Assembly (NCBI GenBank): GCA_023819525.1 | Contig: JAMWCT010000002.1 | Coordinates: forward strand, 1-37,179 | Length of the DNA: 37,179 bases | From: Candidatus Omnitrophota bacterium | Lineage (GTDB): Bacteria > Omnitrophota > Gorgyraeia > Duberdicusellales > 4484-171 | Direction: 5' to 3' | Part shown: positions 1,238-36,900 of the stretch, piece by piece | How the letters are laid out: the number at the start of each line of letters is the position of its first letter | How positions within the stretch are numbered: position 1 is the first letter of the stretch | Notes under the pieces: model-generated | The model's database searches: none | What the model was told of the DNA's origin: nothing | Seen by the model: only the letters and a program-made list of their open reading frames with translations | Program-made: the position numbers and the translations under genes

Positions 1238-3825
1238 AAATTCAAAAATTGCTTAAAGCACTCCTCAACTTCGAACAAAATATTTCTTTTTCTTTCTAAA
1301 ACTATCCCCTGCACTAATTCTTTTCTTCCCCCACCTTTAAGCGAAAGTCTATCTTTAAATTGCTCTAAAAATCGTAAACAATCTATATTTTTTTCTACTA
1401 AATCATTAGATGCCCTACAGACAAAAATTTGTTTATCATAAAAGTTTGAAATAATAAAAACAAAAAAATTTGATAACTTTTGTTTTATAAGATCCGTAAA
1501 ATAAAAAAGTAAAGGGTAATCTTTATTTTCCAATTTCACAGTTATAAAATTTATTTCCTGTATTTGTTTTTTTGCTTGAAGACTCTCATTTACAATATAT
1601 GCAAGTAATTCTTTTTCTAACGATAAAATGTGCTCTTTTTGATTTTTTAAGTCTAAAAATATTTTTTCTATTGCTAAACTTATATCATCTATATTGCACT
1701 TTAAAAAATTTGCCACCTTTTTGCTCTGTTGACTTAATTTATTTATATAGTTATAAGCTTCTTTGCCTACAAGAGCCTCAATTCGCCTTATTCCACTACT
1801 TATAGAAAACTCAGAGATAATAATAAATAAACCTACTTGAGAAGTATTATCTAAATGGGAACCTCCACACAACTCTTTACTATAATCTGATATTGAAACT
1901 AAGCGCACAATTTTTTCATACTTATCTTTAAAAAATGCCAATGCTTTTTCTTTTTTTGCTTCTTCAAAACTTACTATTTTCTTTTCTACAGGGTCTGCCC
2001 TCAAAACAAATTCATTCACTAAATCTTGAATTTCTTCTAATTGAGCACTAGCCAAAGCTTTTGGATGCGTAAAGTCAAAATGTAATCTATCTACATCAAC
2101 TAAAGAACCTTGCTGCATTATAGTTTCCCCTAAAACTTTTCGTAAAGCCGCTTGCAAAAGATGAGTAGCAGTATGTGCTCTTGATAATGCTTTTCTTCTT
2201 TCAACATCAAGGAAAGCCAAAGCTTCATCTTTCTTGATTTTTCCTTTTTCAACAAAACCACTATGAAGTATTATATCGCCTATCTTTTTAACCTCTTCAA
2301 CAAAAAATTTTCCTTCTTTTGTTTCTATATACCCTTTATCAGAAAGTTGACCACCACTTTCTGGATAAAAAGGGGTTTTATCCAAAACAATAACGCCTCT
2401 TTCTTTTTCATTTAAAAAATCTTTTTCTATATCATCAACTAACAAATGTACAATATTTACTGTGCTTTGAAAATTATCGTATCCAATAAATATAGTTTTT
2501 GTGTCAAAATTAAAATAACTTTTTGCAAATATATTTTCATCAAACATACTTTTTTTCTTTGAAAGTTCTCTTTGTTTTATAAGCAACTGGTCAAAACCTT
2601 CTAAAGAGAGGCTAATATTGTATTTTTTTGCCAAATCAATTATTATCTCTAATGGAAAACCTTTTGTATCATATAAATAAAACAATTCCTCTGCATTAAG
2701 TTTTTGTTTGGTTGAAATATAGTAATGAGCTTGGTCAAGCAAATCTAGAAATTTTTCCTCTTCTGCTTGAATGATTCTTAAAATAGCATCTTTTTTTTCT
2801 TCTATCTCTGGATATGCATCTTTCATATATTTTATTACCAAGTTACTTAACATATAAAAACAAGGTTTATTATACCCTAATAAATTAATATTACTTACAG
2901 CTCTGCGGATGATCTTTCTCAAGACATATCCGCGTTCTTCATTTGATGGATATACTCCATCAGCTATTAAAAAGGTAGCAGCCCTTATGTGGTCTGCTAC
3001 CGCATTAACCAATTGAGTTGAGTTTTGGTTTTTTTTCTCCAATCCAACTATTTGCCAAATACGTTCTACGATCGGAAAAAATATATCGATTTGGAAATTA
3101 CTTTGTTTGCCTTGCAAAACTGAAGCTATTCGTTCAAGCCCCATCCCTGTATCAATGTTTTTTTGTGGAAGTGGTTCTAACTTATTTGGTCCGACTCGAT
3201 TAAATTGCGTAAAAACTAAATTCCAAACTTCAACAAATCTAGAACAATCGCAAGCTGGGCTACAACTTGGTTTTCCACAACCAATTGTTTCTCCCTGATC
3301 AAAAAATATTTCAGAACAAGGTCCGCAGGGACCATTAGGACCATCTTGTAGTGCATTTGCTGGCCAAAAATTTTTATCTGGTCCTAATTTTGATATTTTT
3401 TCTTCTGGTACTTTAATATAATCTTTCCATATAGAATAAGCTTCATCATCGTCTTTATAAACAGAAACCCAAAGGTCTTTTTCTTTTATATTTAATTCAG
3501 TTGTCAAAAACTCCCATGCGAAACTAATCGCTTCTTTTTTAAAGTAATCTCCAAATGAAAAATTTCCAAGCATCTCAAAAAATGTATGATGGTAAGCGGT
3601 TTTTCCAACTTTATCTAAATCATCTGTTCGCAAGCACTTCTGACAACTTGTAGCTTTTTTAATATCAGTTTTTTCGCCTAAAAAATAAGGCTTAAACTGG
3701 TTCATCCCAGCAGAGGTAAAAAGAACACTTTTATCAAAAGGTATAAGACTATCTGAAGGAAAAATTACATGGTCTTTATTTTTAAAAAAATCTAAAAATT
3801 TTTTTCTCACTTCAGCTGTTGTCAT
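1234..3825 (-). CDS. alaS: Alanine--tRNA ligase
   Basis: LFTSAGMNQFK, HHTFFEMLGNFSFGDYFK, WNLVFTQF and IDTGMGLER; editing motifs HTATHLL and ELCGGSH; 863 aa. Confidence 0.98.
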   Translation of the reverse strand: MTTAEVRKKFLDFFKNKDHVIFPSDSLIPFDKSVLFTSAGMNQFKPYFLGEKTDIKKATSCQKCLRTDDLDKVGKTAYHHTFFEMLGNFSFGDYFKKEAISFAWEFLTTELNIKEKDLWVSVYKDDDEAYSIWKDYIKVPEEKISKLGPDKNFWPANALQDGPNGPCGPCSEIFFDQGETIGCGKPSCSPACDCSRFVEVWNLVFTQFNRVGPNKLEPLPQKNIDTGMGLERIASVLQGKQSNFQIDIFFPIVERIWQIVGLEKKNQNSTQLVNAVADHIRAATFLIADGVYPSNEERGYVLRKIIRRAVSNINLLGYNKPCFYMLSNLVIKYMKDAYPEIEEKKDAILRIIQAEEEKFLDLLDQAHYYISTKQKLNAEELFYLYDTKGFPLEIIIDLAKKYNISLSLEGFDQLLIKQRELSKKKSMFDENIFAKSYFNFDTKTIFIGYDNFQSTVNIVHLLVDDIEKDFLNEKERGVIVLDKTPFYPESGGQLSDKGYIETKEGKFFVEEVKKIGDIILHSGFVEKGKIKKDEALAFLDVERRKALSRAHTATHLLQAALRKVLGETIMQQGSLVDVDRLHFDFTHPKALASAQLEEIQDLVNEFVLRADPVEKKIVSFEEAKKEKALAFFKDKYEKIVRLVSISDYSKELCGGSHLDNTSQVGLFIIISEFSISSGIRRIEALVGKEAYNYINKLSQQSKKVANFLKCNIDDISLAIEKIFLDLKNQKEHILSLEKELLAYIVNESLQAKKQIQEINFITVKLENKDYPLLFYFTDLIKQKLSNFFVFIISNFYDKQIFVCRASNDLVEKNIDCLRFLEQFKDRLSLKGGGRKELVQGIVLERKRNILFEVEECFKQFLNL

Positions 3826-4264
3826 TATACAATCCTTTCCTACTTAATTGAGTTAAAATTTCATCGTATTCAAAACCTCTTGCTAAAAAATATCTTAAAA
3901 TTTTAGAAACAATATTTTTGCTACCCTTATATTGAAGAACTTTTTTATCAATCATAGACGAAAGTATATTAGCAGTATGTGGGAAATCTAAATTATCAAT
4001 CACTTGCTGCGATATCCCTATTTTTTTTAATGTTGCTAAAATTCTTTTTTTCCCATAACCTTTTTTAGATAAAGTTATTATGTAACTCTTTGCAAGCTCC
4101 TCGTCATTCAAATACCTCTGTTCTTTTAAATATTCTAAAATCTTTTGAATTGTTTGCTTGTTATAACCTTTTTTATTTAATCTAAAAATAAGTTCACTAC
4201 TACTTCTTTGTCTAAATTTCAGCAATAAAAATGTATATTTTAAAGCTTTATCAAAATCGTCCAA
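3812..4264 (-). CDS. recX: Regulatory protein RecX
   Basis: 150 aa with LLKFRQRSSSEL, YLNDEELA, GYGKKRI and YFLARGF repeat motifs; sits in a recA...alaS context; TTG start 1 nt after the degP stop. Confidence 0.85.
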   Translation of the reverse strand: MDDFDKALKYTFLLLKFRQRSSSELIFRLNKKGYNKQTIQKILEYLKEQRYLNDEELAKSYIITLSKKGYGKKRILATLKKIGISQQVIDNLDFPHTANILSSMIDKKVLQYKGSKNIVSKILRYFLARGFEYDEILTQLSRKGLYNDNS

Positions 4265-4265
4265 T

Positions 4266-5681
4266 TTATTCTTCTTTTAAAATAATAAAACCCCTATTTG
4301 TTCTTACTAAACATTTACCTTTTATTTTAGAAGTTATCTCAAAAAAGTCATTTGTATTTTTTATAATCTTATTTTCAATTTTTAAAATCACATCACCAAC
4401 CATAAAACCACTTTTTTCTGCTGCAGAATTTTCTTGGATATTAGTGATGACTACTCCTTCGTTTTCTTTTATATTATATTTTTGCTTTAAAAATAAATCT
4501 ATATCTTTAACTTTCATTCCTCTAAAAATAATTTCTTTTTTGATTTTTGCTGTCTCAAAATAACTATCCTCATAGGGGCGTGGGGCAACTTCTATATCTA
4601 AAAATAATTGTTTACCATCGCGCAATATCTGTATTGGATAAGTTTTACCTATTTGTAGTGAAGAAACTATCTTCTCTAAATCTCTTTTATTAGAGATAAT
4701 TTTATTATTAAAACTTAAAATTAAATCGCCCTCTTTAAGATTAGCTTTTTTTGCAGGAGAATTTTCTTCTACCTTGACAATAATTACTCCTTCTTTTTCT
4801 TTTGTCCCAAAATAGCTGCGAAGTTCTTCGTTTAGATCTTGTATCCCTATACCTAACCAACCATACAAAACTTTTTCTCCTCGTATAAGTTTATCTAAAA
4901 TTTGTTTTGCTTTATTTATTGGAATAGCAAAACCTACGCCCTGATATCCACCGGTAGTTGTAATAATTGCTGTATTTATTCCAATCACTTCTCCGTTTAA
5001 ATTAACTAAAGGACCTCCGCTATTTCCGGGGTTAATCGCAGCATCTGTCTGTATTAGATCACTATATGCACGCCTACCAATCCTGGCTAAAGCAGGTATA
5101 TCCCGATGTAAAGCACTTATAACACCAACGGTTACTGTTGGTTCTGGATTATCAATAGCAAAACCAAAAGGGTTACCTATTGCTACTACCCACTCACCTA
5201 TTTTTAAATTATCAGAATCACCTAATTTTGCATAAGGAAGGTGGTATGCATTAATTTTTATAATTGCTAAATCAGTAGTTGGATCTGTTCCTTTAATTTC
5301 AGCATCAAATTCTCTTCCATCTGCAAGTTTAACTTTTATCTGGCTTGCGCCAACAATTACATGCTCATTGGTTAAAATATAACCATCTGGATCAATAATA
5401 ACCCCGCTTCCCAAACCAACGTGTTTATATTCTCGGTATGGTATTTCTCCAAAAAATTCTTCAAAAAATCTTCTAAATGGATCGTTCTCAAACTCATCAA
5501 ATGGATAGCCAAAATACCAACCACCTCCAACCCTTACCTTTACAACACTACTTATAGATACGACTGCCTTTCCAACAGTTTCCGCAACAGAAATCGTTGC
5601 ATTTTCTAAATCACTATATTTTTGAGCAAATGTGTTTGTAAAACAAAATATAAAAATTAAAAAAAATAAAATTTTTTTCAT
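4266..5681 (-). CDS. degP: Do/DegQ (HtrA) family periplasmic serine endoprotease with two PDZ domains
   Basis: Signal peptide; catalytic triad in TNEHV, TDLAIIK and IQTDAAINPGNSGGPL; two C-terminal PDZ-like segments. Confidence 0.93.
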   Translation of the reverse strand: MKKILFFLIFIFCFTNTFAQKYSDLENATISVAETVGKAVVSISSVVKVRVGGGWYFGYPFDEFENDPFRRFFEEFFGEIPYREYKHVGLGSGVIIDPDGYILTNEHVIVGASQIKVKLADGREFDAEIKGTDPTTDLAIIKINAYHLPYAKLGDSDNLKIGEWVVAIGNPFGFAIDNPEPTVTVGVISALHRDIPALARIGRRAYSDLIQTDAAINPGNSGGPLVNLNGEVIGINTAIITTTGGYQGVGFAIPINKAKQILDKLIRGEKVLYGWLGIGIQDLNEELRSYFGTKEKEGVIIVKVEENSPAKKANLKEGDLILSFNNKIISNKRDLEKIVSSLQIGKTYPIQILRDGKQLFLDIEVAPRPYEDSYFETAKIKKEIIFRGMKVKDIDLFLKQKYNIKENEGVVITNIQENSAAEKSGFMVGDVILKIENKIIKNTNDFFEITSKIKGKCLVRTNRGFIILKEE

Positions 5682-27805: not shown

Positions 27806-28816
27806 TTATAATCCTATGCCAGAAATTTCAAAACCACAATATCGACATTTGCCTCCAATTGCATTATTTTGTAAAATAAAAAATCCTCTTCTTTCAATTA
27901 AAAGTTTATTGCAAGCAGGACAATATGTATTTTCAAATTCACTATATACATTTCCAATATAAACATAATTTAATCCTGCTTCTTTTCCAATCTGATAAGC
28001 AATTTTTAAAGAAGTAAATTCCGTTGCCTGAATATTAGTAAGTTTATAATCTGGGTGAAAAGCTGATATGTGCCAAGGTAAATTTTTATCCACAGAAACT
28101 AAAAACTCTGCTATTTTTTTAAGTTCCTGCTTGCTATCATTTAAACCAGGGATAAGAAGTGTTGTTACCTCTACCCAAATGTTTAATCTTTTCATCAAAA
28201 TTATATTCTCAAGCACTGGTTTTAATGTTGCCTTACAAATTTTTTTATAAAAATCTTCATTAAAAGATTTTAAATCCACATTTGCAGCATCTAAATACGC
28301 TGATATGTATTCCAGCGAATCTTTGCTTATATAGCCATTTGTAACAAAAGCATTCTTTAGTCCTTTTTGTTTTGCAAGTTTACAACAATCAAAAGCAAAT
28401 TCAAAATAAATCGTTGGCTCAGTATAAGTATAAGAAATACTTGGGCAATTTGCTTTTAAGGCTAAATTTATAATTTCATCTGGTGTAACTAAATTTGTCT
28501 TGATATTCAACTTCTTAGCTTCTTTTTCTTGCGAGATTTCCCAATTTTGACAGAAATCGCAACTAAAATTACACCCTACACAAGCAATCGAAAAACTAAC
28601 TGAACCAACTAAAAAGTGAAAAAAAGGCTTTTTTTCAATAGGGTCAATGTTGGCTGCTACAACTTCTCCATAATTTAAAGAATAAAGACTACCATTTTTA
28701 TTTTGCCTTACCCTACATCTACCAAAATTATCTAAAGCAATCAAGCAGTTATGGTTACATAAAAAACATTTTACTTGTTTCTGTTCTAACTTTTTATAAA
28801 ATAAAGCTTCCTTCAT
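27806..28816 (-). CDS. amrS: AmmeMemoRadiSam system radical SAM enzyme
   Basis: N-terminal CxxCxxxC...CRVR, DPIEKKP, radical-SAM CNFSCDFCQN, YTYTEP, NVDLKSF, EVTTLLIPG, C-terminal CPAC...CRYC. Confidence 0.9.
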   Translation of the reverse strand: MKEALFYKKLEQKQVKCFLCNHNCLIALDNFGRCRVRQNKNGSLYSLNYGEVVAANIDPIEKKPFFHFLVGSVSFSIACVGCNFSCDFCQNWEISQEKEAKKLNIKTNLVTPDEIINLALKANCPSISYTYTEPTIYFEFAFDCCKLAKQKGLKNAFVTNGYISKDSLEYISAYLDAANVDLKSFNEDFYKKICKATLKPVLENIILMKRLNIWVEVTTLLIPGLNDSKQELKKIAEFLVSVDKNLPWHISAFHPDYKLTNIQATEFTSLKIAYQIGKEAGLNYVYIGNVYSEFENTYCPACNKLLIERRGFFILQNNAIGGKCRYCGFEISGIGL

Positions 28817-28883: not shown

Positions 28884-29588
28884 ATGAATAAGAAAGCTGA
28901 ACCATTAATAGCCTACAACTTAGATACGCAAAGAATAAAAGAGACTTTTTTTTCTCTACCAAAAAAAAGGCATATTGTAAAAAAGAAAAAAGGTTTTTCT
29001 ACAAAAAACAAATATTTTTTTATAGTAGTTGCCTCTGCTATTTTTTTATCTTTTTTTTTCTTTTTGCTAAATTATGATTTTTTAATTATTCCTAAAAAAA
29101 GTATAAAACAAAATGGTATCCCACTTTTACAAAAAAAATTCTCAAACATTAAAATCATAACAAAAAACACTAACATAAAAGCAATCAAAAAATTGCCTAT
29201 TTATATTGACTTATTACAAAATAAAGAATTAATAATTGAATTTAAAAAACCTACTAATTTAAAAGAAAATTTATTGTTTTTATATATTAAAAAATCACCA
29301 CCGCCTATAGAAATGACAGTTACCGTCAGGGATGAACAATTTTTTTCTAATTCTCTAAACCCTTATAAATTGACAATAACACAAACCAATAATGACTATA
29401 TAAAGATTCCCCTTGATTTTACAACTATAAATTTTCAAAATGCAAATTTAAGAAATATTTCGCAAATAAAATTTTCTTTTTTATCAACGAGCTTTAATTT
29501 AAATATCGAAAAAATTATCAAAAATAAAAATGATAAAAATTGGGTAATATTAAAAAATCTTTTTTTAATAAAAAAGGAGGTATTGTGA
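28884..29588 (+). CDS. Single-pass membrane protein: basic N-terminal tail, TM helix, putative carbohydrate-binding (CBM11/CIA30-like) domain
   Basis: KKRHIVKKKKG, then hydrophobic YFFIVVASAIFLSFFFFLL. The C-terminal pattern IKIPLDF...NLRNISQIKFSF...ILKNLFL resembles galactose-binding-like folds (by eye). Stop overlaps the next start (GTGA). Confidence 0.6.
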   Translation: MNKKAEPLIAYNLDTQRIKETFFSLPKKRHIVKKKKGFSTKNKYFFIVVASAIFLSFFFFLLNYDFLIIPKKSIKQNGIPLLQKKFSNIKIITKNTNIKAIKKLPIYIDLLQNKELIIEFKKPTNLKENLLFLYIKKSPPPIEMTVTVRDEQFFSNSLNPYKLTITQTNNDYIKIPLDFTTINFQNANLRNISQIKFSFLSTSFNLNIEKIIKNKNDKNWVILKNLFLIKKEVL

Positions 29589-30601
29589 AAACTATAGCAA
29601 TAGTAAACCAAAAAGGTGGTTGCGGAAAAACAACTATTGCTATAAATCTATCAGCCGCTCTAGTTAAAAAAAATTATAAAGTTTTACTTGTTGATCTAGA
29701 TCCACAAGCCCATGCAACATATTCTTTAGGAGCAAATGCAAATTTATCTATAACTGACATAATGGAAGCAATTGCTGAAAATAAACAACTTTCTTGCGAA
29801 GATATACTTAAATCGTTGTGGGAAAACTTTTATATTATTCCATCAAGTATAGGTTTGGCCTCTTTAGAACATCGACTTATAAATAAAGAAAATAAATTAG
29901 CCTTGCTATCTTCTCTTTTGAAAAACATTTTAAATTTTGATTATTGTATTTTAGATTGTCCACCAAATTTAGGTCTATTAACACTTAATGCATTATGGAC
30001 AAGCCAATATGCAATAATTCCTTTAAGTATGTGTGACTATTCTTTACGTGGCGTAGAAATATTAAAAAATATTATTCTTATGATAAAGGAACAACAAAAC
30101 TCCTGTCCTATAACTTTTTACCTTCTGAATGGTGTAGATAAAAGATATAAATTTGTAGAAAACTTTATTACAAAAGCCAAATTACAACTTAACACTCTTC
30201 TTTTAGATACACAAATACGCACTAATATACATTTACGTGAAGCAGCATCTTCTGGAAAATCAATATTTCAATATAAACCGGATAGTCGTGGAGCTCAGGA
30301 TTTTTATACTTTAGCCGAAGAGGTAGAAAAAATCACTTCACAAAGTAATTGGGTATCGCTTTTTTTAAAAGATAATTCTTTCTCTGAAGTTTATGTTGCT
30401 GGAGATTTTAATAACTGGAATAAAGATCAGAAATATAGATTAAGCAAAATTGGAGATATTTGGAGCATTAATCTTGCTTTAGATAAAGGAAAATATTGCT
30501 ATAAATTTGTAAATCAAGAAAGTTGGTTTTCTGATCCTCATAATAATTTAACAGAAACAGATCCCTTTGGTGGAAAAAACTCTGTACTTATAATTAAATA
30601 A
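29585..30601 (+). CDS. ParA/Soj-family ATPase fused to a C-terminal glycogen-binding module (CBM48/AMPK1_CBM)
   Basis: Deviant Walker A NQKGGCGKTT, VDLDPQ, ILDCPP. C-terminal VYVAGDFNNW...YKF...W..DP...DPFGGKNSV. GTG at 29585 follows AAGGAGG; 338 aa. Confidence 0.9.
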   Translation: MKTIAIVNQKGGCGKTTIAINLSAALVKKNYKVLLVDLDPQAHATYSLGANANLSITDIMEAIAENKQLSCEDILKSLWENFYIIPSSIGLASLEHRLINKENKLALLSSLLKNILNFDYCILDCPPNLGLLTLNALWTSQYAIIPLSMCDYSLRGVEILKNIILMIKEQQNSCPITFYLLNGVDKRYKFVENFITKAKLQLNTLLLDTQIRTNIHLREAASSGKSIFQYKPDSRGAQDFYTLAEEVEKITSQSNWVSLFLKDNSFSEVYVAGDFNNWNKDQKYRLSKIGDIWSINLALDKGKYCYKFVNQESWFSDPHNNLTETDPFGGKNSVLIIK

Positions 30602-30602
30602 C

Positions 30603-31286
30603 TTAATAGTCCTTCCTTGCTAATAAAACCTTCCCAACGGGCAGGTTAACAGATAGATGCAAAACAGTTTTTGTCTCTTTCTCTAAAAACACGTTGATGT
30701 GTTTCTCTTTTAAACCTTTTATAAGATAAACGTTTTTTGTTTTTCCATTTTTCATTAGTGTTTTTAGTGAATCTACTTTCAGATCTATCTTATTAGTTGG
30801 AAAAATAAAACTAAAAAATGATTTTTTATCTAAATCTAAGTTTTTGGGGAAATAATAAAGCAAGGCTAACATATTTTGAATGGGTTTTCCTGGATAAAAA
30901 ATTTTTGTTTTCTTTGCAAAGCCATTAGTATATATTTTTACATAACCTTTTTTTTGATTATATATTTCTTTAATGACTTCTCTTTTTCCGAAAAAATTTA
31001 TCTTTCTCTCTACTTTTAAAGGAAGATATGTTTTGCTATCAAGATAAATATATTCATGACTTTTTAAATTAAATAATGGGGCAACATTTATGTTTGTTTT
31101 AACAAGTAAAACTTCTACCCAATTTTCATAAGTAAAATTTTTCCCAACATAACTATATTCAATTTTTCCTACCAAAACGTCGTTAAAATAAACATCATAA
31201 AAGACGCTCTCTTGATTTGCCAAAACAAATCCATAATTACAAAATAATAACAAAGATATAAGCAGAGAAATTATACGCAATAGCAT
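30603..31286 (-). CDS. Exported hypothetical protein (DUF3108-like, beta-rich)
   Basis: N-terminal signal peptide (LLRIISLLISLLLFCNYGFVLA), beta-strand-rich body, 227 aa, overlaps the patatin gene stop. Family assignment is tentative. Confidence 0.6.
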   Translation of the reverse strand: MLLRIISLLISLLLFCNYGFVLANQESVFYDVYFNDVLVGKIEYSYVGKNFTYENWVEVLLVKTNINVAPLFNLKSHEYIYLDSKTYLPLKVERKINFFGKREVIKEIYNQKKGYVKIYTNGFAKKTKIFYPGKPIQNMLALLYYFPKNLDLDKKSFFSFIFPTNKIDLKVDSLKTLMKNGKTKNVYLIKGLKEKHINVFLEKETKTVLHLSVNLPVGKVLLARKDY

Positions 31287-33139
31287 TCCAGTTTTTTAAT
31301 TTCCTCTATTTTTTCTATCGCGGCCAGCTTTCCTCTTTCTATAATCTCATATACTTTTTCAAACTCCATCCAACCAATGCCTTCTAGATTTGGATGTATA
31401 ACCACATCAGCTATAGATACGGCTTTATTGATAAATTCTCTTTGCATAGTCTCAATGCTACCAAAAATAAAATCAAATATATGGTGTTTATTGCGTTTTT
31501 TATATTCTCTAAATATTTCTTCTTGAGTAGGTGTAATATTAACGGCAATTACTCTGTTCACATTATAGTTTAGTAGTATTTTTGTTGGAAGCGGATTTAA
31601 TATACCGCCATCTAAAAGAAGTTCTTCTTTAAATTTTACCGGCTCAAAAATTCCAGGCATCGCACAACTAGCCGCTACTGCTTTATATATAGGACCGCTA
31701 TCTATTACTGTTGTTTGTTTTTTTACAAAATCAAAAGCAACAATTTTAAGAGCATGTTTAACATCGTAAAAGCTTTTATTGCCAAAAATTTTCTTACAAA
31801 GGTGCTCAAGGTGTTTTGAACGTATCAAACCCCTAAATGGAATAGAAAAACCAAAAAATGAAAAACTTCGCAACAACTTTCCAAATTCTTTGGCAAGTCT
31901 TTCTATTTCAAATATCTTATAGCCCAAAGCCCAAAGCGCTGCTATAACTGAACCCATGCTTGTGCCGCAGATTAAATCTACAGTTACATTATGTTCCTCT
32001 AATACTTTTAAGACCCCTATATGAGAAAAACCATATGCAGCACCACTTCCCAAAGCCAGACCAACTACAACTTCTCCAAGTTGGCGACTAATTCTTGTAA
32101 TTGCTTTATCATAAGCATCAGTAGATATAGGAGGTAGAGTAGCGTAAATTGGATGATCTAGAATTGTAAGTTTTTCTTGCGTAAGTAAATTATCTTTGCT
32201 CCCAAATTCATTTACAAGAACTCTTATTCTATCCTGCGTAAAAGAATATTTGTTTTTTAACTCACCAATAAAAATGCTTGAGCGCTTTAATTCTTCTAAT
32301 TGTGAAAATAAAATAAAATCTATATAATCTGCTACATCTATAAACTCATCAACCACATCAATCATCTCTAAAGAGGGGACTTCATAAATAATAAAATGAT
32401 AATTTTCAGAAATAAAATTTAAAAAATCACCAAACAGATCTTTAGTGTCAAGTTTTAGCAAAAGATAATCAGCGTCATCAGAAATTATATTTTCAAAAAT
32501 TTTATTTTCATCAAATTTACTTAATAAAAGAGCATTCTGCTCTTTTTTAATAAAATAAGGAAGCATAAAGGTATCAGTTAAAGATATCTCTATACCAATA
32601 ACTTTGCGGTTTGTTACTTTTTTCAAGACTTTACATAGTTTATAAAGATAAGTAGTCTTACCAGAAGAGGAAAAACCTAAAATTGCAATTCTTCTAAATT
32701 GAAATATTTTTTTTGGCCTTGCTTCCTGTGCTCTTACACGCTGTGAAAGCATTCGTGAAAAATCTAACGAAATATTAGGATATTTAGTTAAAAATTGCTT
32801 AAATTTTTCTTTTTCTACTATCAAAATATACGAAGTTTCTATCGCTTTTGCAGTAATTGAATGTGGCTGGTCAGTAAAAAGAGAAATTATTCCAAAAGAC
32901 ATACATCTTTTAAGTAAATCTATTTCAATTTCTTTATTTTCATAAGAAACAGAAGCAACTACTTTTCCTTTCAGAATGAAATAAAAATAATCTGCTGGAT
33001 CAAATTGCTTATAAATTATTTGTCCTTTTTTGTATTCTTTTATAATCGCTATTAAAATAAGTTCATCGATGGCGCTTTCGTTTAATTTGTTAAATGTTGT
33101 GCTATTACTTAAAATAAATTTTACTTCTGCTATATCCAT
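31271..33139 (-). CDS. Fusion of cNMP-binding-like domain, P-loop (MinD/CpaE-like) domain and patatin phospholipase
   Basis: N-terminal YKKGQIIYKQFDPADYFYFILKGKV; central ILGFSSSGKTT; C-terminal LALGSGAAYG, GTSMG and DGG. Confidence 0.88.
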   Translation of the reverse strand: MDIAEVKFILSNSTTFNKLNESAIDELILIAIIKEYKKGQIIYKQFDPADYFYFILKGKVVASVSYENKEIEIDLLKRCMSFGIISLFTDQPHSITAKAIETSYILIVEKEKFKQFLTKYPNISLDFSRMLSQRVRAQEARPKKIFQFRRIAILGFSSSGKTTYLYKLCKVLKKVTNRKVIGIEISLTDTFMLPYFIKKEQNALLLSKFDENKIFENIISDDADYLLLKLDTKDLFGDFLNFISENYHFIIYEVPSLEMIDVVDEFIDVADYIDFILFSQLEELKRSSIFIGELKNKYSFTQDRIRVLVNEFGSKDNLLTQEKLTILDHPIYATLPPISTDAYDKAITRISRQLGEVVVGLALGSGAAYGFSHIGVLKVLEEHNVTVDLICGTSMGSVIAALWALGYKIFEIERLAKEFGKLLRSFSFFGFSIPFRGLIRSKHLEHLCKKIFGNKSFYDVKHALKIVAFDFVKKQTTVIDSGPIYKAVAASCAMPGIFEPVKFKEELLLDGGILNPLPTKILLNYNVNRVIAVNITPTQEEIFREYKKRNKHHIFDFIFGSIETMQREFINKAVSIADVVIHPNLEGIGWMEFEKVYEIIERGKLAAIEKIEEIKKLECYCV

Positions 33140-33157: not shown

Positions 33158-34363
33158 TCAGCGTATTATTAATTGATTTTCTTTACATATTTTAGCATAC
33201 AAAAAAGCAAAAGGTTTTATTTTTCTCTCAAAAGTTTCATAATTTACTTCTACCAATCCAAATCTTGGTCTAAATCCTTTTTCCCATTCATAGTTATCGA
33301 TAAGTGACCACCAAAAATATCCATTTATTTTGACACCCCCTTCTATGGCTTTTGCAACACTTAGAAGATGTGAAATTAAATAATCTTTATAAAACTTATC
33401 ATTATTTTCTGCTGTGCCATTTTCTGTGATAATTATAGGCAAATTAAATTTTGCTAATTTAAATAAAAGTATATACAAACCTTTTGGATAAACATACCAG
33501 CCAAGACAATTTTTCCCTCTTTTGTGATCGTGGGGGCATTCTCTACCATATATACCAAAAAATTGTGTATATTCTTTGCAATAGTAGTTAATAGAAAGAA
33601 AATCTAAAATTCTATTTTTGCAAAGTTTATCAAGCAAAGAAAAATTAAAAATGTTATCACGTATTTTAGCGGTTAGTTTGTTTAAACCAAAACTAAAATT
33701 TGGACAACTACGAAAAAACCGTAAATGCTTACTAAAAGAAACTTTGCAAAAATTTCCTGCATATATTCTTTTTATCTCTTCATAACCATTTTTGTACGCA
33801 TCTATTATGTTACATAAAACTTTTTTTGCGTCAGAAAAAGATTTTTTGCCAGGTGGCCAAATTCCTCTTATAAAACCATTATAAATATAAACCAAAGGTT
33901 CATTAAAAATTAACCAATATTTTACCTTATCTTTAAAAATTGAAACAATCTTTGTTAAATATTTTAAAAAGAAATCAATATTTTTTGCAACAAGCCAACC
34001 ATCTTTTTTAATAAACCAAATAGGGTTAGTGAAATGATGTAAAGTAACAAATGGTTCTAAATTTAATTCTATTAATGTATCTATAACTAACCGATAATGC
34101 CTCAGTGGTTCATCTACAAACTCCGTCTTCTCTGAACACAATCTTGACCACTCAAAAGAAAACCTTATTGCATTCAGATTAAGTTTTTTAGCGATACTAA
34201 AATCCTCTTTGAAAAGAAAATAATGATTGCTTGCAGAGGCTGCTGGTTCTAAATTGTTAAGTTTTTCCCACTCATACCAATCGCAATTAAAGTTGTTACC
34301 TTCGGTTTGATAACTTGAGATAGAAGCCCCCCATAAAAAAGATTGTGGAAATTTATAAATCAT
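33158..34363 (-). CDS. Glycoside hydrolase family 1 (beta-glycosidase)
   Basis: FLWGASISSYQTEG, RFSFEWSR, TLHHF, FNEP (acid/base), ITENG (nucleophile), WSLIDNYEW. Confidence 0.95.
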   Translation of the reverse strand: MIYKFPQSFLWGASISSYQTEGNNFNCDWYEWEKLNNLEPAASASNHYFLFKEDFSIAKKLNLNAIRFSFEWSRLCSEKTEFVDEPLRHYRLVIDTLIELNLEPFVTLHHFTNPIWFIKKDGWLVAKNIDFFLKYLTKIVSIFKDKVKYWLIFNEPLVYIYNGFIRGIWPPGKKSFSDAKKVLCNIIDAYKNGYEEIKRIYAGNFCKVSFSKHLRFFRSCPNFSFGLNKLTAKIRDNIFNFSLLDKLCKNRILDFLSINYYCKEYTQFFGIYGRECPHDHKRGKNCLGWYVYPKGLYILLFKLAKFNLPIIITENGTAENNDKFYKDYLISHLLSVAKAIEGGVKINGYFWWSLIDNYEWEKGFRPRFGLVEVNYETFERKIKPFAFLYAKICKENQLIIR

Positions 34364-34372
34364 CTACTTTTT

Positions 34373-34765
34373 TTAAGAGAGAGCCTCTAATGCTTTATTG
34401 TTATCGCCAGAGGAAAAAACAACAATTGCAGAACCCTTTGGCGTTGCAGCTGTTCCATACATATAAGTAATATCAACATTGGCTTCTTTTAATTTAGAAG
34501 CTAATATGTGGAGTTGACCGATTTCGTCTGGCATATCCACTATAATTACATCTTTGCTTTCAACGGTGCCAAATTTTTTTAAAATTTCTTTGGTAGTAGT
34601 ATTATTTGAAGTAAGTAGCCTAAAATATGCTTTTATACCATCGCTATATGCATTAATAGCTCTAATATTTACATTATTATCTTTTATAATTTTTGTTATC
34701 TGGTCTAATTTAACAATTTTATTTTCAGTAATAAGAAAAATCTCTTCTCCTCTTACTGCTTTCAT
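34373..34765 (-). CDS. Stand-alone tandem ACT domain protein
   Basis: 130 aa with two ACT-like repeats (ENKIVKL...NVNIRAI and MPDEIGQL...ANVDITYMY); AAGGAGG RBS. Confidence 0.78.
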   Translation of the reverse strand: MKAVRGEEIFLITENKIVKLDQITKIIKDNNVNIRAINAYSDGIKAYFRLLTSNNTTTKEILKKFGTVESKDVIIVDMPDEIGQLHILASKLKEANVDITYMYGTAATPKGSAIVVFSSGDNNKALEALS

Positions 34766-34854: not shown

Positions 34855-36900
34855 CTATTTATTTGGATATATACTTAAAGATAAATTAAATTTATTTTTT
34901 TGTTCAAAAATAAAAAGTAAACAAAGTTGTTGATAAACCTTCTCAAAACCATCTTCAGAAGAAGAAACAGTATATATTGGAAAACTAAATATATTAACAT
35001 TTGTGTCTATCTTAAAATCCACAATTATTTTTTTAAATTTATCTAATATTTTAAAATTCTTTATAGAAGAAAAAACTCCTGCCTCTTTCAATGACAATTC
35101 TTCTTTTTTATTTTTAGCAAAAATATCTAATAATGATAAAAAAGACAAATTAAATTCTATTCCAAAATTATACTTATTTAAAATATTTTTTTTATCAAAA
35201 TTGTAAAGCACAGTTAATCCTGCTTCTTTTTCTATCGATATAGTTTTAGTAAAACTTAAATTTTTACTTTTATAATAAAAATCAATAGTGATTTTTTTAT
35301 TTTGACTCTTCATCTTAAAATTATAAAAGGTATTTGCTAAAGTGATAAAACCTCTCTGTTGATCGAAATCCTGTAGCGATATTTTTTTATCTAAAATGTG
35401 ATCTATCAATCCAAGTTTTTGATAATTATCGTATACCAAATACTTATAAAGATCTGGCTCTTTCTGTTTAACTATTTGATGAATAGTAGCAATCTCTTGA
35501 TTTGTGTTACTGTTAGCAGATAATTTTTGATGATATGATTCTTTTTGCCGAGTTACTGTATTTAGTAAATTGTATTGTGGGTCTTTTAGACAAAATTCTA
35601 AAAGAGTACCACCTTTTTGGGAAAAACAAAATATTGCCTTTTTATGATTTACAAGTATTTCGTCTTTTGTACATAAATCTATATCTTCTTGTTTGACCTC
35701 TATATCCTCAAAATCTAAATATTTTTTTTCAAAAAGCACTTGCGCTTTAATTAAATGTTCATAAACAGAACTGCGTAAATGCCCTAAATAGAATCCACCA
35801 AAAATTCCATGCCAATAACTACAGTTAGTCTGCGCTTTCCATAGATTTTTTAAAATTTCTATATCTTGCTTTAGATCTATTTTAGAATGTATTTTTTTAC
35901 TTATAGAAAGCATACGTTTATGCATATAATTTAGACGACTATACTTATGATAAAAATTTCTAAAAAATCCACCACGTATGAAATCTTTAAATTCTTCAAA
36001 TCTGTTCGTTTCTTTAAGAAAATTTTTTAACCTCTCATAAATAATGAAACTCTCAGGCATAAGAACCCATTCCCCCATCTCCTCATATGAGGATGTAGGT
36101 AAATAAATTATTCCGCAAGAACAAAATTTCTGTATTGCTTCTTCTGCTGTAATAGTTATGATATTTTTAGAATTAGACAGTTGGGCAAAAAAATTATTCA
36201 GCCAACCTTTATTATATACCCAATCAAAAGTATTTGGCCAAAGGCCAAATTTTTCTCCATCATCAAAAAGTGTAACTAAAACATCACTATCGGAAGCAAA
36301 ACTATTTAAAAGTTCAATAGCCTCATAGTGCTGGGAAAAAGGAATTTTATACCTTAAAGTTTTACTAATAGGAAAAATAAAAATAGGTTTAGCATCTTCT
36401 TCAGTTGTATAATAGCCAAAAAATTCTTTTTGAATTAGCCCCGCATAACGAAAATGAGTATCATCTAAAAAGGTATATTTTAAATTGCAATTATATATAA
36501 TCTTTACCAAATACTGCTCCCATACTCTTTCTGCAATCCAAATTCCTTTTGGCTCTATCCCAAATTCGCTTCTTAAAAAATCATTCATAAAATTTATCTG
36601 TCCATATTTATCATCATCGCTAATTAAAGGTAATATTGGCTCATAATATCCGCCGCTTATAATTTCAATTTGATTTCTATTTACAAGTTTTTTAAGAATA
36701 TCTATATATTGTGGAGCATTATTTAAAAACCAATCGTAGAGTGGACCAGAGTTGTGGATACAACACTTTATATTTGGAAATTTCTCTAATGTCAAAATAA
36801 ATGGCAAATAACAGTCGTGGTAAGCCTTCCTAAAAATACTATCAAAATTTCCTACCGGCTGATGGTTATGAACACCAAATAAAAAATATACTTTCCCCAT
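34855..36900 (-). CDS. GH57 alpha-amylase / 4-alpha-glucanotransferase
   Basis: HNHQPVGN, GGYYEPIL, WIAERVWE (nucleophile Glu), DDGEKFG (acid/base Asp), SYEEMGEW, YWHGIFGG, VSSSEDGFEKVYQ. Confidence 0.92.
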   Translation of the reverse strand: MGKVYFLFGVHNHQPVGNFDSIFRKAYHDCYLPFILTLEKFPNIKCCIHNSGPLYDWFLNNAPQYIDILKKLVNRNQIEIISGGYYEPILPLISDDDKYGQINFMNDFLRSEFGIEPKGIWIAERVWEQYLVKIIYNCNLKYTFLDDTHFRYAGLIQKEFFGYYTTEEDAKPIFIFPISKTLRYKIPFSQHYEAIELLNSFASDSDVLVTLFDDGEKFGLWPNTFDWVYNKGWLNNFFAQLSNSKNIITITAEEAIQKFCSCGIIYLPTSSYEEMGEWVLMPESFIIYERLKNFLKETNRFEEFKDFIRGGFFRNFYHKYSRLNYMHKRMLSISKKIHSKIDLKQDIEILKNLWKAQTNCSYWHGIFGGFYLGHLRSSVYEHLIKAQVLFEKKYLDFEDIEVKQEDIDLCTKDEILVNHKKAIFCFSQKGGTLLEFCLKDPQYNLLNTVTRQKESYHQKLSANSNTNQEIATIHQIVKQKEPDLYKYLVYDNYQKLGLIDHILDKKISLQDFDQQRGFITLANTFYNFKMKSQNKKITIDFYYKSKNLSFTKTISIEKEAGLTVLYNFDKKNILNKYNFGIEFNLSFLSLLDIFAKNKKEELSLKEAGVFSSIKNFKILDKFKKIIVDFKIDTNVNIFSFPIYTVSSSEDGFEKVYQQLCLLFIFEQKNKFNLSLSIYPNK

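Follow-up and report, generated by a model that had tools for sequence, protein, structure and literature searches.

ParA/MinD-type ATPases determine the location of chromosomes, plasmids, carboxysomes, chemoreceptor arrays, flagella and the divisome; in the case of MinD, ATP-dependent dimerization confers affinity for a surface by means of a C-terminal module, with a peptide of its partner protein triggering release. Both terms, glycogen and granule, are absent from a review of 2024 and a survey of 2023 on the cargos of these ATPases, and our text searches of the literature recovered no paper tying ParA to glycogen other than a preprint of October 2026. Here, we describe a two-gene module from a Candidatus Omnitrophota bacterium, in which a ParA-type ATPase fused to a carbohydrate-binding module of the CBM48 family (henceforth ParA-CBM) is encoded directly downstream of a single-pass membrane protein (henceforth the partner). 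It lies in a window, i.e., the whole stretch of DNA analyzed, of 37,179 nucleotides (GenBank assembly GCA_023819525.1, contig JAMWCT010000002.1, positions 1 to 37,179), which is contig C101 of a 1.65-Mb metagenome-assembled genome that is 90% complete and has a G+C content of about 30%. We tentatively propose that this ParA/MinD-type module couples cytoplasmic alpha-glucan (glycogen) to ATP-driven tethering or positioning at the inner membrane.

The said preprint ([quoted passage not shown]; 10.64898/2026.10.19.760177, 22 October 2026) is a computational study that catalogues the ParA-AMPK1_CBM architecture as clade ConB5. It describes the fusion as sporadically spread over several phyla, with rapid divergence of the CBM and with two kinds of variants: one with an upstream protein with a single transmembrane segment that bears a second, fast-evolving periplasmic CBM, and another with a second ParA plus an inactive restriction endonuclease (REase). 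The proposal made there is that carbohydrate sensing triggers ParA multimerization in immunity. The pair in the window corresponds exactly to the first of these variants. The original prediction knew of no functional characterization of such a system; its two-gene architecture is already contained in the preprint. The Omnitrophota versions nevertheless depart from ConB5 as described there in having a CBM as conserved as the ATPase, vertical descent, a core-genome context and a recurrent gene of glycoside hydrolase family 57 (GH57) in the neighborhood.

Several better-understood systems offer further points of comparison. As with McdA/McdB, an orphan ParA-type ATPase is found alongside the chromosomal ParAB and its partner has a charged N-terminal region, and the McdA structures 6non and 6nop are among its fold neighbors in Foldseek searches. 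In contrast to McdAB, the ATPase carries the putative cargo-binding module within its own chain, the partner is embedded in the membrane instead of being a cargo protein, and the signature lysine is present. The chromosomal Soj/ParA proteins provide the closest sequences and folds and have the Walker motifs and the arginine of a DxR motif in common with ParA-CBM, which differs from them in being without an adjacent parB, in its own KGGCGKT and DPQAHAT hallmarks and in the added CBM48. With respect to MinD/MinE, the CBM48 stands in place of the C-terminal membrane-targeting helix and no MinC- or MinE-like gene adjoins the pair. On the carbohydrate side, PTST2 of plants and a membrane-associated partner together set where granules are initiated. 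The CBMs of AMPK beta and plant PTST belong to the same CBM family and have the same glucan-contact residues as that of ParA-CBM, but are combined with a kinase scaffold or a coiled coil instead of an ATPase; PTST delivers a partner protein to starch granules via its CBM48 (PMC4339375).

The gene pair and its conservation

The two genes and the likely translation signal between them are as follows:

28884–29588, forward strand: partner gene, coding for a 234-residue bitopic membrane protein with its N-terminus inside (from the list of open reading frames, ORFs)
29574–29580, forward strand: Shine-Dalgarno-like AAGGAGG, 4 nt 5' of the GTG (read from the letters)
29585–30601, forward strand: ParA-CBM48 gene, 338 residues plus stop, with a GTG start overlapping the partner's TGA

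The GTG at 29585–29587 and the partner's stop TGA at 29586–29588 overlap in the string GTGA. This overlap had been pointed out in the original prediction, as had the single-pass nature of the upstream protein, which indeed has one hydrophobic segment at about residues 44–62. The ORF listing extends the ParA-CBM frame in the 5' direction to a TTG at 29540; the GTG at 29585, from which we count the residues, is the most likely start because the AAGGAGG box, the GTGA overlap and the N-termini of homologues, which lie about nine residues ahead of the KGG, all agree on it. The arrangement supports translational coupling of ParA-CBM to the membrane partner, as judged from the sequence. A scan for promoters and terminators was uninformative (13 sites versus 12.5 expected). 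The same ATPase-CBM fusion recurs in at least 120 protein clusters and in at least 594 tblastn-confirmed stretches of a species collection and is, hence, no chance arrangement. Together, ParA-CBM and its transmembrane partner make up a genuine module of two genes that is conserved and that we class as a variant of the ParA/MinD positioning systems.

The ATPase domain and its orphan status

The N-terminal part of ParA-CBM comprises:

29585–30334, forward strand: Soj-type ParA/MinD ATPase domain, residues 1–250 (AAA_31 match, Foldseek)
29612–29635, forward strand: deviant Walker A motif KGGCGKTT, residues 10–17 (from the translation)

A check with profiles for AAA_31/CbiA plus AMPK1_CBM, suggested at the outset, matched all three (E-values of 8.9e-49 with 166 bits, 8.2e-21 and 6.5e-10, respectively), with no NCBIfam family above its cut-off. 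The translation contains, intact, the KGGCGKTT, DLDPQ (residues 37–41) and DCPP (residues 124–127) motifs that had been ascribed to a Soj-like ATPase; the signature lysine, the P-loop, the switch (Walker A') aspartates D37/D39 and the Walker B D124 of ParA/MinD ATPases are all present. Across 38–43 homologues N8, Q9, K10, G11, G12, K15, T16, D37, D39, P40, Q41, D124 and R187 are invariant. The family hallmarks KGGCGKT (C13 in 42 of 43) and DPQAHAT (H43 in 43 of 43) furnish a handle for finding further members. The closest sequences with solved structures are the ParA-ATP structure 8ray (E = 2.4e-34) and the Soj proteins of H. pylori and T. thermophilus. Likewise, the AF2 model (predicted local distance difference test, pLDDT, 90.2; predicted template-modelling score, pTM, 0.89) displays the Soj/MinD fold, with Foldseek retrieving 9a6n, 8ray, 2bej, 2bek, 1wcv, 8jmj and 6iub at E-values of 1e-20 to 1e-23. 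The template-modelling (TM) scores by target against Soj/ParA structures are 0.84–0.93, with McdA, MinD and BcsQ coming next.

The DNA-binding patch of Bacillus subtilis Soj (BsSoj) consists of R189, K201, R215 and R218 (PMC6393308). ParA-CBM carries D185-K-R187, i.e., the DxR motif, and the string NIHL at 214–217. By our count along the BsSoj sequence, R189 is presumably the arginine of DxR and R218 that of "NVR". On that mapping, R187 (BsSoj R189; 43 of 43 homologues) is the only patch position strictly kept, position 213 (R215) has no basic residue, and position 216 (R218) varies among the 43 (H12, K12, R7, A5, S3, T2), with the window copy having a His in distinction to BsSoj. The earlier observation that the DxR is kept and that the second Arg position reads NIHL holds on the same mapping. 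At neighboring positions basic residues are common, with R30/H13 at 212 and K or R in 42 of 43 copies at 218.

A canonical parA (AAA_31, 217 bits) followed by parB (ParB_N, 112 bits) is found on contig C129 of the same genome. ParB_N is confined in this genome to contigs C129 and C29, and neither the genome-wide ParB_N search nor Pfam searches with 24 further ORFs of the window found a ParB in the window, in line with the statement that no parB lies nearby. Since the canonical pair sits on C129, the window ParA is an orphan second copy. Its identification as the chromosomal Soj was rejected in light of that pair, and its identification as MinD was rejected given that there is no membrane-targeting helix and that no min genes adjoin it.

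The CBM48 domain

The C-terminal part of ParA-CBM is a single domain:

30368–30598, forward strand: CBM48/AMPK1_CBM domain, residues 262–338 (Pfam, phmmer)

It matches PF16561 (AMPK1_CBM) with 39.5 bits against a curated cut-off of 26.8, whereas PF02922, at 19.7 bits, remains under its cut-off; in phmmer searches it aligns with the AMPK beta1 CBM structures 1z0m, 1z0n and 4yef at E-values of 1e-5, with 1z0n being a cyclodextrin complex. The glucan-type domain conjectured to be built into the ATPase is thus a fused CBM48, and the AMPK-beta contact pattern noted in it is found in full (GDFNNW, YKF, W..DP, GGKN). In AMPK beta1, the residues contacting beta-cyclodextrin are Trp100, Lys126, Trp133, Leu146 and Asn150 (PMC9788615), which align respectively to W278, K307, W314, F328 and N332 of ParA-CBM. 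Among 43 homologues both tryptophans are present in all copies, and the other three positions show K31/R10/Q2 (K307), F33/Y10 (F328) and N24/D19 (N332); the predicted glucan-contact residues are strongly constrained, being either invariant or conservatively replaced. The W278/W314 pair corresponds to the two tryptophans whose mutation in the plant CBM48 protein PTST abolishes starch binding (PMC4339375). Over 903 pairs of Omnitrophota-type copies, the CBM and the ATPase domain both average 43.2% pairwise identity, i.e., within the sampled Omnitrophota divergence is no quicker in the CBM than in the ATPase domain. The linker between the two ranges from about five to about 60 residues, with the window copy having a short one of a few residues. 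The possibility that matches to residues 1–250 are ParAs with another C-terminus was rejected, as 15 of the 15 that were fetched have the very same fusion, joined by a longer linker.

ParA relatives also act as regulators, namely Soj on DnaA, MipZ on FtsZ and FlhG on flagellar number. An alternative to glycogen tethering, which we regard as unlikely but worth weighing, would be a glycogen-status switch: through the CBM, the ATPase would be informed of how much alpha-glucan there is or of its state, and ParA would regulate another membrane or nucleoid process, be it division, replication, envelope synthesis or the access of GH57 to glycogen, with the partner relaying a periplasmic glycan signal. 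The invariance of the DxR arginine from the Soj DNA patch, together with the near-constant K/R at position 218, speaks in its favor, as does AMPK, whose CBM inhibits allosterically on binding glycogen or cyclodextrin (PMC9788615). Against it stand the variability of the position mapped to BsSoj R218, the non-basic residue at that mapped to R215 and the linker, whose range in length is easier to reconcile with a binding module on a tether than with an allosteric domain that packs against the enzyme; moreover, no target is identifiable.

The membrane partner

The partner can be divided into three parts:

28923–28952, forward strand: N-terminal cytoplasmic motif D-x-x-R-[LI]-[KE]-x-x-F-[FL], residues 14–23 (homologue alignment; AF2 helix at 10–23)
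29013–29069, forward strand: single transmembrane helix, about residues 44–62 (hydropathy 2.58; AF2 helix at 41–63)
29115–29573, forward strand: periplasmic beta-sandwich (jelly-roll, CBM-like), residues 78–230 (AF2 strands, Foldseek)

No Pfam, NCBIfam or PADLOC family matches it, and its AF2 model has a pLDDT of 84. Homologues fall into two subgroups, the first having the above N-terminal motif in 17 of 17 close homologues and the second, of about 190 residues, having [ED]-[IV]-Y-[ED]-[HY]-L-A in its stead. The layout is unchanged between them: an N-terminal helix, a Lys/Arg-rich stretch (reaching residue 43 in the window copy), the transmembrane segment and a beta-sandwich of about 150 residues. 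Lys and Arg number a mean of 6.0 per 15 residues on the N side of the transmembrane segment versus 2.5 on the C side, with the N side being the richer one in 29 of 31 homologues, whose N-terminus is accordingly cytoplasmic under the positive-inside rule. Foldseek relates the sandwich to APC10/Doc1 and to CBM families 4, 6, 11, 16, 22, 29, 30 and 61, at modest values (E of 3e-5 to 3e-4; TM by target up to 0.53). The partner is more than a plain adaptor, given this periplasmic CBM-like jelly-roll domain in the AF2 model and the Foldseek matches.

Among 30 related loci, a profile built from the window partner detects a homologue in 19, immediately 5' of the ParA-CBM gene and on its strand, the two genes often overlapping by 4 nt, and a partner of the second subgroup lies upstream in 11 of 15 long-linker loci. 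With a joint profile, the partner is found in 35 of 78 species loci, 26 of them titled Omnitrophota and nine "uncultured Planctomycetia/-ales".

Known partners of ParA/MinD ATPases work via a positively charged N-terminus (PMC10241942). A complex prediction for a dimer of ParA(1–255) with ATP/Mg and partner residues 1–45 gave a score of 0.59 (runs of 0.58, 0.64 and 0.59) as against 0.00 for the best control; the runs share at least 78% of their contacts, and the partner has a pLDDT of about 50. In the calibration of the tool, the mark used is passed by 58 of 80 solved complexes and two of 110 mismatched pairs, and scores up to 0.60 take in merely seven of the 80 solved complexes yet both of the passing mismatches; the tool's verdict is one of weak support.

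The periplasmic domain also bears on a further alternative, in which ParA-CBM, like BcsQ, would localize a complex for glucan export or uptake as an organizer of the envelope or of exopolysaccharide, with both CBM-like domains binding the polymer in transit. ParA-CBM does give a match to CBP_BcsQ (30.3 bits), BcsQ structures are among its fold neighbors, and in two loci (L059, L061) the partner is preceded upstream by genes for outer-membrane porins of the Alginate_exp type. Yet Soj/ParA structures fit far better than those of BcsQ (TM by target of 0.88–0.93 versus 0.77–0.80), and the pair has no recurrent neighbor coding for a synthase, a transporter or a BcsR-like protein. To our knowledge, CBM48 is a module for cytoplasmic or plastidial alpha-glucan wherever a case has been described, which also counts against this role; we consider it highly improbable.

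Distribution and descent

All named relatives of the ParA-CBM protein are from Candidatus Omnitrophota. Taking the CBM as the query, we searched a sample of 131 genomes from the class to which the window belongs, counting as fusions those where the CBM ends a frame of at least 340 residues. A CBM match is present in 88 genomes and absent in 43; the fusion occurs in 66 (among them a copy interrupted by an in-frame stop and another truncated at the end of its contig), and short or other CBM proteins alone occur in 22. In some families every sampled genome has a CBM match, of whatever kind (f5, 5/5; f14, 5/5; and f15, f22, f12, f17, f48, f44 and f21, each 4/4), whereas others have none (f13, 0/4; f19, 0/3; f11, 0/4), and the fusion, too, is patchy between families. 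Four genomes have two copies. In a quick maximum-likelihood tree of 43 copies, a non-random sample made of the best matches and 15 chosen long-linker copies, the families f2, f4, f5 and f15 are each monophyletic (SH-aLRT branch support of 95–100). The family label undergoes 14 changes on this tree, the minimum possible, as against a mean of 28.2 after shuffling, with none of 200 shuffles being as low. The copies from two genomes (G175 and G394:C3) fall inside family f1 although these genomes belong elsewhere, and are likely to represent two transfers. Within Omnitrophota, ParA-CBM is, thus, inherited mainly vertically as a cellular gene.

Beyond the class, a survey with the hallmark patterns, covering the best 80 of the at least 594 stretches and with phyla taken from record titles, yielded full-length fusions in Planctomycetota/Phycisphaerae, Myxococcota, Deltaproteobacteria/Thermodesulfobacteriota and Gemmatimonadales, and further ones in Krumholzibacteriota, Rokubacteria, Margulisiibacteriota, Eisenbacteria and Auribacter, among others. 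The protein atlas agrees with this wide spread.

In an immune interpretation of the family, following the preprint, the system would serve in biological conflicts: the cytoplasmic and periplasmic CBMs would sense carbohydrates altered by infection, with glycosylated virion parts, envelope fragments or depletion of glycogen as candidate cues, upon which ParA would multimerize and block the invader. [quoted passage not shown] In our data, the patchiness by family (66 of 131), the two displaced copies, the genomes with two copies and the fast evolution of the partner's outer domain (13–37% identity to the window copy) point the same way. So does a gene 0.7 kb downstream of the pair on the other strand, coding for a cNMP-binding patatin-type protein with PADLOC matches of an effector-like kind. 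On the other hand, the rapid CBM divergence is not what the Omnitrophota copies show, their CBM being as conserved as the ATPase and its glucan contacts being either unchanged or exchanged for similar residues; the gene tree follows taxonomy, with as few label changes as are possible; whole families carry the CBM; the surroundings are those of a core genome, with no PADLOC match for either ParA-CBM or the partner; the recurrent neighbor is a GH57 gene, rather than one for a nuclease or toxin; and no effector is evident. We accordingly view an immune role in Omnitrophota as somewhat less likely again than a glycogen-status switch.

Glycogen genes and genomic neighborhoods

The genome of the window copy has, besides four GH57 genes, genes for GlgC (433 bits, above cut-off) and for two GlgA proteins of glycosyltransferase family 5 (GT5). 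Despite these genes, a search of the 90%-complete assembly for a PF00343 glycogen phosphorylase came back empty. Two genes for enzymes of this sphere lie in the window itself, 2.6 to 6.3 kb downstream of the pair:

33158–34363, reverse strand: GH1 glycosidase (Glyco_hydro_1, 221 bits)
34855–36900, reverse strand: GH57 of the 4-alpha-glucanotransferase type (Glyco_hydro_57, AmyA-A_glucT_m, AmyA-gluTrfs_C)

Their presence within 6.5 kb had been anticipated, and Pfam places both inside 6.3 kb. A more specific link comes from other loci: a GH57 gene coding for about 515 residues lies directly upstream of the partner and ParA-CBM genes in seven of 15 loci, all of one subclade. Three of the three such proteins tested are GH57 (206–230 bits), this GH57 protein is related to recently solved GH57 structures (E = 2.7e-84), and the string GH57-partner-ParA-CBM is found in 13 of the 78 species loci. 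This synteny is stronger evidence for a link with glycogen than the co-occurrence with glgA. GT5 glgA is present in 120 of the 131 class genomes, in 65 of the 66 with the fusion and in 55 of the 65 without it, with 10 of the 11 glgA-less genomes also being without the fusion. The co-occurrence with glycogen genes that was put forward as a check agrees with the hypothesis, if weakly.

In one subclade, the genes downstream of ParA-CBM code for a protein of about 106 residues with three transmembrane segments (a weak DUF4870 match) and for a Lys-rich protein of 135–185 residues, whose C-terminus weakly matches EF-Tu domain 2. These recurrent downstream ORFs lie at:

L066:3589–3915 and L066:3927–4337
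L062:4041–4595
similar ORFs in L054, L058, L065, L067 and L068

The genome of the window copy also joins a second CBM48 to a putative transcription-factor domain, inside a glycogen gene cluster, which counts towards the link with glycogen. On contig C143 (L001:1255–1725, forward strand), a 156-residue protein combines an XRE-type helix-turn-helix (HTH) with an AMPK1_CBM/CBM48 domain, and its gene lies directly upstream of genes for a 389-residue glycogen-synthase-like glycosyltransferase and for GH57; it may be a glucan-sensing transcription factor. In genome G147, a Lys-rich CBM48 protein of 107 residues (L152:2751–3074, forward strand) comes right after ftsQ- and ftsA-like ORFs, judged on N-terminal sequences. 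In loci of the Myxococcota/delta type, a MerR-family regulator replaces the upstream transmembrane partner (L105:5299–5850 and L127:5235–5768; L133 and L142 by motif). Each of these three contexts, i.e., the HTH fusion in a glycogen cluster, the proximity to division genes and the upstream MerR regulators of some other phyla, would also suit the glycogen-status switch considered above.

Short CBM frames are found on the same contig as a GT5 glgA, 6.5–7 kb from it, in five genomes (G025, G045, G065, G177 and G409). Giant frames of 13,822–39,687 residues with a GT5-like stretch occur in six cases (G153:C2, G149:C1, G079:C16, G428:C13, G035:C8 and G270:C9). A preprint on giant genes in Omnitrophota reportedly exists.

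The context of the pair in the window is that of a core genome, including rpsB-tsf-pyrH-frr, recA, alaS, lepA, lpxA/lpxB and genes for aromatic amino acids. A radical SAM enzyme of the AmmeMemoRadiSam system (27806–28816, reverse strand; TIGR04337, 335 bits) is divergent from the partner gene. The downstream patatin-type gene mentioned above (31271–33139, reverse strand) codes for a 622-residue protein with cyclic-nucleotide-binding (cNMP) and patatin phospholipase domains; its PADLOC matches are to phospholipase effectors and to the cNMP part of PycTIR, and no cyclase was seen adjoining it. Between the GH1 and GH57 genes lies a gene for a 130-residue protein with a pair of ACT domains (34373–34765, reverse strand).

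A proposed mechanism

Briefly, we advance the following plausible mechanism for the glycogen-coupled cycle. ATP-bound ParA-CBM would form a sandwich dimer, as suggested by the invariant Lys10, Lys15 and Asp37/39. The dimer would present two CBM48 modules, and it alone might bind the multivalent surface of glycogen with avidity. The partner, held in the membrane with its N-terminus inside, would offer its conserved helix and Lys-rich stretch to the ATPase; this N-terminus is probably a peptide of the kind by which known partners bind and fire ParA/MinD ATPases, as the complex prediction weakly suggests. Such binding would tether glycogen particles to the envelope, with hydrolysis releasing them, and repeated cycles might spread or anchor the granules such that both daughter cells inherit them. 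More speculatively, the periplasmic jelly-roll domain of the partner might set the site on the envelope.

Several observations weigh against this proposal and deserve to be set out together. (i) The GH57 and GH1 genes of the window are on the opposite strand and beyond two unrelated genes. (ii) The association with glgA is weak, since glgA is near-universal and related genomes are not independent; of the 65 class genomes without the fusion, 55 have glgA, i.e., many relatives handle glycogen without it. (iii) One genome of 91% completeness, G291, has a genuine pair (partner and ParA-CBM at L149:2498–3313 and 3310–4473, respectively) with no match to PF08323, no glgC above cut-off (best score 70.6 versus 424.9 bits) and, as the sole trace of GH57, a fragment of 26.8 bits. 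This is a single case among the 66 fusion genomes of a fusion without evident glycogen metabolism, a situation named beforehand as one that would speak against the idea. (iv) In other phyla, where we searched 75 ORFs from 11 of 22 selected loci against Pfam and many high-GC ORFs had no family, the neighborhoods are heterogeneous, with MerR upstream in some and with PGM or GH15 within 5 kb in just three of the 11. (v) The transmembrane partner was detected by the joint profile in none of the other 43 species loci. (vi) The outer domain of the partner evolves fast, and a role in surface sensing or conflict would also fit this divergence. (vii) The complex prediction is weak under the tool's own calibration. 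(viii) The cells may be very small, in which case the partition of granules might need no machine.

The initial idea of a glycogen-granule positioning system is, therefore, upheld in part: the orphan ParA, the built-in CBM48, the coupled partner, the glycogen genes and the GH57 gene of the subclade speak for it, while the case of G291 speaks against it and the partner is more than an adaptor. We rate a housekeeping, glycogen-coupled ParA cycle as the most likely among the alternatives because of the conservation of the CBM, the fixed glucan contacts, the mainly vertical descent, the core-genome context, the lack of a PADLOC match and the glucan-enzyme neighbor; the glycogen-status switch comes next, followed by immunity and then by an envelope-glucan organizer.

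Conclusions

The same genes now carry two opposed hypotheses, one of housekeeping and the other of immunity. On the former, and with somewhat more reserve than for the coupling to glycogen as such, it is possible that ParA-CBM48 drives a system dedicated to positioning or partitioning a storage granule made of carbohydrate, the first such system, equipped with a membrane-anchored activator. If so, the usual layout, with ParA on a matrix and the partner on the cargo, would be reversed, in that the ATPase would carry the cargo binder and the membrane would hold the activator, and a storage polymer would join the list of ParA/MinD cargos. Glycogen inheritance would then be actively organized in many bacteria, going by the phyla that the titles of the fusion-bearing records name.

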